Shown here piece by piece: positions 60,457-64,000 of a stretch of DNA of 64,000 nucleotides (the first letter of the stretch is position 1; every line of letters starts with the position of its first letter). The notes beneath the pieces were generated by a model. That model was not told where the DNA came from, ran no database searches, and saw nothing but the letters and a program-made list of their open reading frames with translations. The position numbers and the translations under genes are program-made. Where the stretch lies: positions 32,001 through 96,000 of the IMG/VR virus record IMGVR_UViG_3300021387_000036; one strand, written 5' to 3'. Source of the DNA: a virus (taxonomy: Duplodnaviria > Caudoviricetes).

Positions 60457-60864
60457 TTAATTTCCTCCTCCAAAAATAGCATCGTATTGTTCATCTATAA
60501 TTTGTTTTATGCGAGCATTTTTAATATCATCTCGACCTAATTCTTCAAAACTCTTATCTTGTGTTAATTCAACCCCGTTAATAGATGGTTTATTTATCAA
60601 TAGTTCATAATCTCCACTTTCTGCGGCAACCAGTTCTTGCCAGGATGTACCGTTAAAAAAGAATTCTACGTCTGGATTATTATATACAATAGTCCAGTCT
60701 CCCACCTTGGCAGTAACATATTGATTATCTATTACAATAGGATTAGTTGTATCATTATCTTGAAGTTCTGTTGTGGTTATTCCCAAAAATCTTGCTCTTG
60801 CTTTAAGTTCTTCTTCTATTTTTTTAATTTTTTTATGTAAAAGACCATATGTAATAATATCCAT
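60457..60864 (-). CDS. Virion accessory protein
   Basis: GD.......EF.FNG..W, DY..L.NKPSINGVEL...KS.EELG. Confidence 0.6.
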   Translation of the reverse strand: MDIITYGLLHKKIKKIEEELKARARFLGITTTELQDNDTTNPIVIDNQYVTAKVGDWTIVYNNPDVEFFFNGTSWQELVAAESGDYELLINKPSINGVELTQDKSFEELGRDDIKNARIKQIIDEQYDAIFGGGN

Positions 60865-61052
60865 TAAATCATCACCCACTCTCCGGCGGTAGTGAGCATA
60901 TACACTTCACTATTTTCAATACATATCGCTACGCTACCAGAGCTTACATCAGGTTGAATAGGCAAATTTTGAATATCATTAACTGTATCAACAGAAAACT
61001 CTGTATAATAAGTATTATTATGGTCTTGTTGTTTAATTCTTACAAAACCCAT
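60864..61052 (-). CDS. Small hypothetical protein
   Basis: EF..DT..DI..LP.....GS.A.......VY.L...GEW; AGGAGG RBS. Confidence 0.65.
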   Translation of the reverse strand: MGFVRIKQQDHNNTYYTEFSVDTVNDIQNLPIQPDVSSGSVAICIENSEVYMLTTAGEWVMI

Positions 61053-61159
61053 TCATTCAACCTCCTTTTAAATTATTTTTTAAACTTACGAATTTTCTAT
61101 AATTTATTTCAATTTTCTCAAAAAAAGATTAAATAGAATTGATTAAGAAAAGCGATTTA

Positions 61160-61209
61160 AAAAAGTTGAAATCCATTTTTTATTTGCGGTGGCGCCCGCT
61201 TCCACTCCA
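61160..61209. repeat. Dispersed ~50-bp intergenic repeat, copy 2
   Basis: Aligns with 9263-9311. Confidence 0.7.
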
Positions 61210-61222
61210 GCCAAATAAGCAT

Positions 61223-61255
61223 AAAAAAAGAGGGAATAGTATAAAACTATTCCCT
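61223..61255 (-). terminator. Intrinsic terminator ending the ncRNA transcription unit
   Basis: AGGGAATAGT/ACTATTCCCT 10-bp stem followed by CTTTTTTT. Confidence 0.85.
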
Positions 61256-61259
61256 AGTT

Positions 61260-61300
61260 GTAACTCCTAAACTGGAGGGCAAGGTAGAAGTAGGAGTTAC
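61260..61300 (-). ncRNA. Putative trans-acting hairpin sRNA with CU-rich loop
   Basis: Perfect 10-bp stem GTAACTCCTA/TAGGAGTTAC, 21-nt loop CTTCTACCTTGCCCTCCAGTT. Confidence 0.55.
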
Positions 61301-61304
61301 GAAA

Positions 61305-61348
61305 TGTGTCAATTCGGAGTTGAACCGAATCTAGTCCCTAGCTGACAC
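61305..61348 (-). ncRNA. tRNA-like minihelix (acceptor stem plus T arm, no D or anticodon arm)
   Basis: GTGTCAG/TTGACAC 7-bp stem, TTCGG-TTCAACT-CCGAA T arm, discriminator A. Confidence 0.6.
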
Positions 61349-61552
61349 CTGCTTATTAATGAGCATTTCCGCATGTTTAATAAGCTTTTTACTTTTCAAT
61401 TTTTTATTAGTATAAGCTTCAATAAGCTGTTTTTCATTTAATTCTTTTTCTTCAAATGCTTTATCATTAGTTTTCTTCATATCTTCTATTGAAGGTGAAC
61501 TACAATTTTTAGCCATAAAACTTTTCATTTTTGCAAATTCTGTTTTACTCAT
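61331..61552 (-). CDS. Small basic hypothetical protein
   Basis: GGAGG RBS, MSKTEFAKMK...; last codons overlap the tRNA-like element. Confidence 0.6.
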   Translation of the reverse strand: MSKTEFAKMKSFMAKNCSSPSIEDMKKTNDKAFEEKELNEKQLIEAYTNKKLKSKKLIKHAEMLINKQVSARD

Positions 61553-61565
61553 ATTAACCTCCACT

Positions 61566-62216
61566 CTTGATAACTTAATTATAATAATAAATATTAGACC
61601 TTCGTCTTACTCTGATTACCTTCTGTTTTATTAGACTAATAAGGAGATAAGTCTGAGCTTAAAGGAGCTACCTTTAAACTTCTTATCCCATTCCGTTTTC
61701 CACGGAACTCAGGTTTTGCACCTTTTATCTTATATAGGATTGATTACCTATAACTTTCACGCACCATTCAGAGTTGTTCTTCCTATTAAAGTTTTTCAAA
61801 ACTTTCAAATACTTTTTTATTTGATAATTCATAGCAGATTTGCGCTACTCGTACCCTGACCTTCTCTTATAGATTATTTCTAATCTTCAACTGCTAAACT
61901 TCCTTATTTTGGTATTACTTAGGTTTGCAGCGGGGACCACCCAACATACCACCTAACTAAGCTTCTTCCTCGCAGAGGCTGCCTATTACGGAAGCAAGAA
62001 GACAGTGTCTTAAACAGCGATAACCTCGAGCACGTACTACCAAAGAGCTTGTATTTTCTTTATACAAGTGGATATTTCTATCACTAGATAAATCCGTTCT
62101 TTCTTTCAAAGTATCCTTATCCAAAAACTTATTCTAATGGTTAGGCAGTACTCTCAGCATCATGGCATTGACTCTTCACTGAGTTAATACATTATTATTA
62201 TAATTAAATTATCAAG
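61566..62216 (-). ncRNA. Large structured ncRNA, GOLLD/ROOL-class candidate
   Basis: No ORF over ~650 nt, own promoter, 25-bp terminal stem with one U-G pair, many internal hairpins, adjacent to phage tRNAs. Confidence 0.7.
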
Positions 62217-62303
62217 GTTCTATTTTGTTTTATTTTCTATATATATTATATAAAAAATTTTTATAAATTTCAAATCATGTTGTCATAACTTTCAATTTAT
62301 GAG

Positions 62304-62374
62304 CTGGGGTAGCTGGACTCGAACCAGCCCACTGTGGGTCAAAGCCACATATCCTACCTCTAGATTATACCCCA
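62304..62374 (-). tRNA. tRNA-Gln(TTG)
   Basis: TGGGGTA/TACCCCA acceptor, TGTGG-CTTTGAC-CCACA anticodon arm, GGTTCGAGTCC. Confidence 0.9.
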
Positions 62375-62482
62375 TTGAGACTGTTTGCCTTTACAGACTC
62401 GTCTGTGTTTGCTGACTACCAACAGCTTGGCGGAAGTAGTTTTCATCCTTCGATATGTCCTAAGACATAACCTGCTATTGAA

Positions 62483-62564
62483 TGAGCGAGGAGGGGATCG
62501 AACCCTCAATCCTTGCGGCACGAGGGCTTAAACCTCGTGTGTATTCCAGTTCCACCACTCGCCC
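62483..62564 (-). tRNA. tRNA-Leu(TAA)
   Basis: GGGCGAG/CTCGCTC acceptor, CGAGG-TTTAAGC-CCTCG, long variable arm, GGTTCGATCCC. Confidence 0.9.
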
Positions 62565-62773
62565 AAAATGCGGGAAACTGCCTTTATGACTTTACAAGAC
62601 GAGGCTCCCGCCTCCTTTTATCTCTTTCTATTGGAACCCGTGTGCTGCTATGTTTACACCACGAACCTCGGGAGAAAGAAATGTATCGCTATTGTGGGAA
62701 GAATTTTGTTCCACGATACATTTGTTAAAAGCATATGAGTACTCACCCTCATTCTAGGGCATATGCTAGACCC

Positions 62774-63090
62774 TGTGCAATTTAGTAGGTTTGCCAACCT
62801 TTTAAACTTCGATAGCCTGCCGAAGATGGACATCAATCCCATCATTTCTAGGTCAGCGCTTTGCGTCGTCACGGAGCCACCGCCAAGCGAGTTTTAATTT
62901 GTTTTTACTCAATTCGGTTATCTACCCTCTGAAGTTTTATAATCCACCGTTTATGGCATAGGTCGTGGGACACCTATCGCACCCTCCTTGGATTTCTCCT
63001 CACACTTCGCCGCCACACTAAATGACTACTAAAGGCTCTCACTTTAATTTTAAGATGGACGAGATTTCCCATCAGTAGAGTTATTGCACA
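62774..63090 (-). ncRNA. Unassigned ~320-nt structured RNA between tRNA-Met and tRNA-Leu
   Basis: Terminal TGTGCAAT/ATTGCACA stem, nested helices, elevated GC, no credible ORF. Confidence 0.5.
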
Positions 63091-63144
63091 TTAAGGTAGC
63101 TTCGCTTACCTCGTTACTGTCGGTTAAGGGAGCCGACTCCTAAA

Positions 63145-63215
63145 TAGCAGGTGCCAGATTTGAACTGGCGTCTGGGCGGTATGAGCGCCCCAAGGTTCCA
63201 CTCCTCTAACCTGCG
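63145..63215 (-). tRNA. tRNA-Met(CAT), initiator-like
   Basis: Unpaired C1:U72, GGGCG-CTCATAC-CGCCC anticodon arm, GCCAG-TTCAAAT-CTGGC T arm. Confidence 0.82.
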
Positions 63216-63395
63216 ATATTAAACCTGTGATTTATCTCGTTAGCACAGGTACTCCGCATCCGAAATGAAACGGGGATGAATCCGTTCTATTCTATGTCAG
63301 GGATTGTTAGACGGGAATAGACAAGCCACTTATTTTAACCCAAATTTTTAAAATAAAATTATGACGAGTACTGGTGTATATCCTATAATTTTATT

Positions 63396-63599
63396 TCTTT
63401 TTTCATCTTACATATATATTGTATCAAAAATTTTTATAAATTTCAAATATATTTTATCTTAGGTAAAGTTCCGTTTCCTTATTTAATGCTAATTAACCAC
63501 TTCTGCTAAGGGGATTTCAAAATTTAGCTCCCTAAGAAATAATATGTCTTTTTTCATCTTACATATATATTATAGCAAAAAATTTTATAAATTTCAAAT
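63396..63599 (-). repeat. Duplicated 53-bp promoter unit (63396-63448 and 63547-63599)
   Basis: TTGAAA-N17-TA(C/T)AAT-ATATATGTAAGATGAAAAAAGA; 3 mismatches between copies. Confidence 0.8.
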
Positions 63600-63607
63600 T
63601 ATTTTAG

Positions 63608-63679
63608 TAGTCTGTACGGGAATTGAACCCGTGTCTTCTGGATGAAAACCAGATGTCTATACCACTTGACTAACAGACC
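63608..63679 (-). tRNA. tRNA-Glu(TTC)
   Basis: GGTCTGT/ACAGACT acceptor, TCTGG-TTTTCAT-CCAGA, GGTTCAATTCC. Confidence 0.9.
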
Positions 63680-63811
63680 AATAAGCAACTTTCTTTTGCA
63701 GAAGCTAGATGGGTTATGGTAAGTTGCCACCTTTGTAATCCTCCACATTCACCGCATCCCATCACGGATTCTGTTTCATAGGCATCTACCTTTAGGCGGT
63801 GAGCGCCATAA

Positions 63812-63883
63812 CGAGCTTACAGAGAATCGAACTCTGATTTTCGGAGAGACAATCCGATGTAATAGCCTTTATACTATAAGCCC
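63812..63883 (-). tRNA. tRNA-Asp(GTC)
   Basis: GGGCTTA/TAAGCTC acceptor, TCGGA-TTGTCTC-TCCGA, AGTTCGATTCT. Confidence 0.88.
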
Positions 63884-64000
63884 ATAATAGGAGTTGCACT
63901 CCCGCCCTTACTGGCGGAAGCCCATCCTATTTTATCTAATCTCAACGTTATGCAGCTCTTTACTTTACGAAGCAGCTGCCGCACCGTGTACTTCATTAGT

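Follow-up and report, generated by a model that had tools for sequence, protein, structure and literature searches.

Large structured RNAs of the ROOL family have been described in phages, where they lie near tRNA islands, are highly abundant, and form cages (PMC12286853, PMC5737381, PMC5643018, PMC9241854). ROOL-related RNAs were reported to be extremely abundant in two of these studies (PMC5643018, PMC9241854), and ROOL env-120 was demonstrated by cryo-EM to assemble into a homo-octameric cage free of protein (Kretsch et al. 2025, PMC12286853). The mature ROOL of L. salivarius was determined by circular RACE to be 520 nt long, and its promoter was placed 225-450 nt upstream (PMC5643018), so that this RNA must be cut from a longer transcript. 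A second point of reference is the leader of the rRNA operon. For the rrn antitermination complex of E. coli, boxA is both necessary and sufficient, and a further role proposed for it is to tether the leader strand to the polymerase until the trailer has been made, so that the two can pair as the leader-trailer helix (PMC10250234).

Here, we analyzed a stretch of 64,000 nt (hereafter, the window), which corresponds to bases 32001-96000 of a viral record of 130,270 bp. The best explanation of the locus, in which we have high confidence, is that it contains a ROOL RNA gene, encoded on the minus strand by an uncultured phage with a complete genome of 130 kb, whose host is probably a low-G+C member of the Bacillota. 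The RNA itself is an ordinary full-length member of an already known family and is found in a typical setting.

The phage genome and the ROOL transcription unit

The viral record carries 107-bp direct terminal repeats and is rated complete. Its G+C content is approximately 30%, it has phage hallmark genes, and its large genes all lie on the minus strand. The gene products include an anaerobic ribonucleotide reductase, a PolC-like polymerase, NAD ligase, topoisomerase II, RecJ, DnaB, and RNA ligase, as well as an amidase-type endolysin and tail fibre proteins. The polymerase is closest to those of SPbeta-like Bacillus phages (37% identity); the phage is a distant, uncultured SPbeta-like relative, and its host is probably an anaerobic, low-G+C member of the Bacillota. 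The same region is 100% identical in an ENA assembly (a 137.9-kb contig) and in a JGI metagenome (L207 and L208; 2.8 kb and 2.1 kb compared), which indicates that the phage recurs across samples.

ARAGORN called 12 tRNAs and one tmRNA-like gene in a 5.5-kb island (genome 94303-99794), all on the minus strand, and the ROOL gene is the next element downstream of this island in the same orientation, that is, in the published textbook setting for ROOL. Five of the tRNAs lie upstream of the ROOL gene inside the window, and the last tRNA of the island, tRNA-Gln (62303..62374, minus strand), is situated 29 nt upstream of the ROOL -35 box with no terminator between. The island has other features of its own. 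The tmRNA-like gene (274 nt, tag ANNYALAA, genome 99117-99390, minus strand) falls within the island and outside the window. Between tRNA-Asp and tRNA-Glu, a sub-threshold match to the full model of the drum RNA (RF02958) is found at 63681-63784 on the minus strand (36.1 bits compared with a gathering score of 43, E 2e-4). The 578-nt spacer from tRNA-Met to tRNA-Leu (62566-63143, minus strand) has a G+C content above that of its surroundings, contains ORFs of at most 72 aa, and is without an Rfam match at E <= 1; it may host another uncatalogued structured RNA, and part of it (62774-63090) had been flagged separately by the sequence-only reading that preceded this analysis.

The ROOL gene is preceded by a promoter of the sigma-A/sigma-70 type (62245..62273, minus strand), in which TTGAAA and TATAAT are separated by 17 nt with 11/12 matches, and we infer that transcription starts near 62238. 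This promoter is part of a 62-nt repeat family, D1, that has three copies in the tRNA island. Approximately 15 near-identical promoter modules were found in the 130-kb genome, all on the coding (minus) strand, each composed of TTGnnn, an A/T-rich spacer ending in TTTTT, TATAAT, and then ATATATAGAAAATAAA; examples in the window are those at 62245-62273, 63418-63446, 63569-63597, 35964, 25637, and 22100. The ROOL promoter is thus one of the standard host-type promoters of this phage, in agreement with the earlier claim that the region has a promoter of its own. Three of the modules lie within 1.4 kb of the tRNA island and divide it into short units.

Downstream of the promoter, the RNA is closed by helix P1, which consists of 25 bp formed by a 5' (leader) arm at 62192..62216 and a 3' (trailer) arm at 61566..61590, both on the minus strand. 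The two arms correspond to an inverted repeat (I1) of 25 nt with 96% complementarity, 601 nt apart, and the RNA measures 651 nt from foot to foot of P1. P1 is the closing helix in the Rfam alignment and was also recovered when the 657-nt RNA was folded, in the minimum-energy as well as the centroid structure; the fold has z = -5.5 (0/20 shuffles fold as well). The sequence-only reading had placed this stem correctly and had also assigned the correct strand, the motif that it quoted being the reverse complement of 62208-62220; its label of an rRNA-style processing stem is a reasonable analogy. It had further described the region as free of ORFs, and indeed no ORF of at least 60 aa occurs inside the ROOL region, the longest being 55 aa.

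P1 is followed, after a gap of 3 nt, by a Shine-Dalgarno (SD) sequence, GGAGG (61562..61558), which belongs to a Lys/Glu-rich ORF of 73 aa (61331..61562, minus strand; ATG at 61552, stop codon 61333..61331). The stop codon overlaps a tRNA-like minihelix (61306..61348, minus strand) that comprises a 6-bp outer stem, a small hairpin, and a 6-bp stem with a T-arm-like, 7-nt T-loop-like loop; neither ARAGORN nor Rfam called a tRNA in this minihelix. A hairpin of 10 bp with a 21-nt loop is predicted by folding at 61260..61300 (minus strand), and the unit is closed by an intrinsic terminator (61222..61255, minus strand; 10-bp stem plus U-run), the first one downstream. The 131-nt tail of the unit folds with z = -4.7. 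Co-transcription of the ROOL RNA with the small ORF, the minihelix, and the hairpin, as suggested earlier, fits this layout, since P1 and the SD are only 3 nt apart, no promoter-like site was listed in the scan of the minus strand between 62245 and 61437 (the latter position being inside the 73-aa ORF), no terminator separates the ROOL RNA from the ORF, and the first terminator is met at 61255..61231; the arrangement is therefore consistent with a single unit as read from the sequence.

Identity of the RNA and its relatives

An Rfam scan of the whole window gave a single large match, that of the ROOL model (RF03087), at 62207..61576 on the minus strand. The match is not truncated and spans the full model (1-574 of 574), and its score of 287.1 bits (E 8e-65) is approximately three times the gathering score of 99.1. 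Around 38 positions of the Rfam model, that is, some 19 pairs, are non-canonical in the window, mostly in the variable P3 branches. A permissive scan (E <= 1) of 60800-64000 gave no other large-RNA match.

Searches by blastn found no DNA-level relatives of the locus in isolated phages or plasmids. Because ROOLs are too divergent for a DNA search, homologues were fetched with the most conserved ROOL block as a pattern, which matched more than 83 viral contigs. In these contigs, 80 ROOLs were then identified with a profile made from confirmed members, and they were clustered into 38 non-redundant lineages (L002-L084). Of 20 viral loci scanned with Rfam, 19 contained a full-length ROOL with scores of 221-359 bits, nearly all among tRNA genes, and the 287 bits of the window thus lie in the middle of the family range. 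None of the fetched ROOLs is close to that of the window, identity reaching at most ~81%, over parts only. tRNAs are present on the ROOL strand in 33 of the 38 lineages and on the opposite strand in none. Several ROOLs start 0-25 nt from the 3' end of a tRNA or have a tRNA 1-10 nt after them. Other structured RNAs were also observed within 1-3 kb of ROOLs elsewhere: a tmRNA (L006:3098-3399, 93 bits), a short match to the tmRNA model (L030:2471-2553, 51 bits), a group I intron (L053:1273-1520, 76 bits), and a 6A RNA (L038:3430-3480).

We aligned the window with 18 Rfam-confirmed ROOLs by using MAFFT plus RNAalifold, an approach that recovers only 65 pairs; compensatory changes were found in 56 of these, including pairs of P1, P2, the long-range helices, and the 3' hairpins. 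P1 helices of approximately 20-35 bp are the rule across ROOLs, and the 25-bp stem is hence a family trait rather than a peculiarity of this phage. The 19-sequence alignment has 52 invariant columns, among them AAUAG, AGUAGC, and UCUGAAUG..GUGAAAGUU, and the window has all of them. The most conserved block, UCUGAAUG and GUGAAAGUU separated by 4 nt, consists of invariant columns at 61752..61772 (minus strand) and is the one that was found in the viral contigs mentioned above. Next to it, at approximately 61775..61838 (minus strand), lies an A+U-rich variable linker that is low-confidence and insertion-rich in the Rfam alignment and in which homologues are unalignable; the equivalent linker is disordered inside the cage in a solved ROOL (PMC12286853).

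The three hairpins named by the sequence-only reading are all real. The hairpin UAUAGG..CCUAUA (61752..61733, minus strand) aligns to a conserved ROOL hairpin, and so does the 8-bp hairpin UUUAAAGG-UAGCU-CCUUUAAG (61658..61678, minus strand; columns 630-655), which shows compensatory changes; UUCCGU-GGAAA-ACGGAA (61707..61691, minus strand) is located in an insertion relative to the ROOL model. Judging from its position before the last hairpin and not from published numbering, the 61658..61678 hairpin is probably P18/L18, which forms the symmetric kissing loop B6; its loop, UAGCU, contains the self-complementary AGCU and is compatible with a symmetric kissing contact. The last hairpin, AGAC-GAAG-GUCU (61596..61607, minus strand; columns 707-722), is P19 and covaries.

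The region had been read earlier as a large structured RNA that is a member or relative of GOLLD or ROOL, with no decision between the two, because their genomic habit is alike: both are large and ornate and are found beside phage tRNAs (PMC5737381, PMC12286853). This habit is also what would speak for a GOLLD RNA, or for a new family merely similar to both, an explanation to which we give almost no weight. GOLLD (RF01998) had no match at E <= 1 in 60800-64000, nor at the gathering score anywhere in the window, whereas the ROOL model matched from end to end at 287 bits and all invariant ROOL blocks are present, which settles the question in favor of ROOL. The comparison by cmsearch with the GOLLD and ROOL models, which the sequence-only reading had put forward, thus returned one full match and one absence, and its forecast that a strong Rfam match would confirm the identity yet lower the novelty turned out to be right. 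Another explanation is that the ROOL region is mainly a 5' UTR, long and structured, through which the 73-aa ORF is controlled, the two forming one functional pair. The SD that begins 3 nt past P1, and the stretch from the ROOL promoter to 61437 that has neither a promoter-like site nor, between ROOL and ORF, a terminator, would suit such a pair, and the ROOL of L030 likewise precedes a small Lys/Glu-rich ORF that abuts P1. The ORFs of the window and of L030 are unrelated, however, and none of the 80 other ROOLs lies beside a homologue of the 73-aa ORF, most ROOLs being followed by tRNAs instead. The only relative of the ORF, a weak one (43% identity over 53 aa), follows a 280-aa gene in a 133.7-kb contig with no ROOL within 4 kb. 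A 5' UTR role is accordingly improbable in our estimation, and the small ORF was rejected as a conserved partner of ROOL; it is probably a real small phage protein whose link to ROOL is local. The idea that it offers a handle on the function of ROOL is weakened for the same reason, that is, the ORF is not tied to ROOL in other phages.

The boxA-like motif at the foot of P1

In the ROOL RNA of the window, the outer (5') end of the P1 leader arm carries the boxA-like motif GAACCTTGATAAT (62208..62220, minus strand), which starts ~18 nt past the inferred transcription start, in the same place as in other ROOLs that carry it. This P1-foot motif is the single match in the window to the 11-nt pattern AACYTTGAHAA. 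Many divergent ROOLs have CTTGAAAAC, CCTTGATAA, or CTTTGAAAA at the outer end of the leader arm, and the core [CT]TTGA[ACT]A was found at the 5' foot of P1 in 19 of the 38 lineages (two of these may be promoter elements), compared with an expectation of 1.6 and a maximum of 7 in 2000 composition-preserving shuffles; equal-sized windows in the ROOL interior had 0-3 occurrences. Of 34 strict motif matches in 652 kb, 15 fall in the 2.3 kb of P1 feet, an enrichment of more than 100-fold. When the sequences were anchored on the core, which is 100% conserved in the P1-foot carriers, the preceding G-A-A-C was 63-84% conserved and the next A 84%, and the rest of P1 had a column identity of ~30-70%. 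The exact motif, read as the reverse complement, is kept in only 7/38 trailer arms; the leader strand is therefore the one held constant, and its partner drifts via wobbles and mismatches.

The motif consensus, GAAC(C/T)TTGA(A/T/C)AA, resembles the rRNA boxA of Bacillota and Mollicutes, GTTCTTTGAAAACT. With one genome per species, GTTCTTTGAAAACT was found at 27 sites located 45-217 nt before the 5' end of 16S and at 16 sites located 73-323 nt before the start of 23S (43 of 124 in total), and the string is also part of a published mycoplasma spacer primer. The motif of the window agrees with the Bacillota core CTTTGAAAACT at only 8/11 positions, and other ROOLs match this core at up to 11/11 positions (L048 exactly). 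The earlier designation as boxA-like is thus upheld both for a conserved motif and for a resemblance to the rrn boxA, but is not supported as a statement of function. The motif is absent in half of the ROOL lineages, including the largest clade, in which P1 starts right after the -10 box, and hence is no requirement of the family. The ROOL of L. salivarius pMP118 (130 bits) is also without it and so is of no use as an experimental stand-in when the boxA idea is considered. In the literature that we searched, no paper joined ROOL with boxA, nor ROOL or GOLLD with antitermination, NusB, or RNase III. The motif was also considered as the -35 box of an internal promoter and was rejected as such, with no acceptable -10 box at 16-18 nt and no minus-strand promoter in the scan.

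What the motif does may be viewed in several ways. We tentatively propose, as a possibility that we hold at well below even chances, that approximately half of the ROOL lineages, including that of the window, are miniature rRNA operons by analogy: a boxA-like leader signal would recruit the host Nus antitermination complex, which would protect the transcript, promote closure of P1, and hand the RNA over to the RNases of rRNA maturation, and the cut would here also free the mRNA of the ORF. An alternative that seems to us rather unlikely is that the motif is no site for Nus factors but directs recognition or cleavage by a double-strand RNase, or acts in processing in some other way. It would account for the location of the motif within a 25-bp duplex, the natural substrate of such enzymes, and for the maturation of the L. 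salivarius ROOL from a longer transcript, and the window and seven other lineages contain ACCU, which, within AACCUUGA, matches the sequence preferred by Bacillus Mini-III. ACCU occurs, however, in only 8 of the roughly 19 motif-bearing lineages, the common core being YTTGAHA, and the leader arm keeps the motif while the trailer arm often departs from exact complementarity, which suggests that a single strand, and not the duplex, is recognized. We also consider it unlikely, and give this only a small share of our belief, that the motif has no function and is shared by descent in one ROOL subclade or is a by-product of an A+T-rich stem. The P1 arms are A+T-rich, and the half of lineages that lack the motif would be consistent with such an origin, but the shuffles never approached the observed 19/38, the enrichment stands out against the surrounding 652 kb, and the core is invariant in carriers although the rest of P1 has diverged freely.

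A candidate route of biogenesis and comparison with known systems

A ROOL faces the same folding problem as rRNA: the two arms of its 25-bp helix are transcribed at a distance of 600 nt from each other, and the long transcript is untranslated and would be exposed to Rho. Because the boxA-like motif resembles the boxA of rRNA operons, Nus factors may load on nascent ROOL via this leader motif. The Nus complex would then shield the long untranslated transcript from termination and would retain the leader arm of P1 until its partner has been transcribed. Once formed, the long P1 duplex would be a likely target of a double-strand RNase, and cleavage there would also release the mRNA of the 73-aa ORF, only 3 nt beyond P1, with its SD close to the newly made 5' end. 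By homology with the solved ROOLs (PMC12286853), the RNA of the window is predicted to fold into a flat multi-helix monomer, of which eight copies would assemble, without protein, into a hollow cage of D4 symmetry ~28 nm across with the A+U-rich linker inside. The cage would most likely act as a compartment or scaffold, made of a very abundant RNA that the phage encodes and tied to the tRNAs of the phage and to its take-over of translation.

The ROOL of the window is one more ordinary example of a family that has been described, is in Rfam, and has been solved by cryo-EM. Its value is that of a clean specimen, since it lies in a complete genome, and its promoter, start, closing helix, and terminator can be read from the sequence. 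A useful by-product of the analysis is the quantified, family-wide boxA-like motif at the foot of P1. If this boxA-like foot had the same action as the boxA of rRNA operons, the ability of phages to make large amounts of an RNA that is long, untranslated, and precisely folded would have an explanation, and Nus factors, together with RNase III or Mini-III, would provide a simple experimental handle on the ROOL family.

Compared with the ROOL family as described (RF03087; Weinberg et al. 2017, PMC5737381; Cousin et al. 2017, PMC5643018; Kretsch et al. 2025, PMC12286853), the RNA of the window differs in nothing essential: it shares the match to the full model, the conserved blocks, the covarying helices, the variable linker, and the long closing P1, as well as the phage genome and the neighboring tRNA genes in the same orientation. 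Its length of 632-651 nt somewhat exceeds the family average of 581 nt, because of the extra hairpin (61707..61691) and an extended P1, and the small ORF that abuts P1 is no trait of the family. GOLLD RNA (RF01998) is likewise large, ornate, borne by phages or prophages, located beside tRNAs, and able to form RNA-only cages, but is unrelated to the RNA of the window in sequence and fold. The lncRNAs of the staphylococcal Kayvirus phage K, among which lnc001 received the most reads in the phage transcriptome (PMC9241854), were likened to GOLLD and ROOL in that study by position and abundance only. With the rrn leader boxA and leader-trailer helix (PMC10250234, PMC5725501), the ROOL RNA has in common a long helix that flanks a large structured RNA and a boxA-like motif on the leader side, shortly after a strong promoter; in contrast to the rrn operon, where boxA lies upstream of the helix, the ROOL motif is located inside the helix arm, and half of the ROOL lineages are without it.
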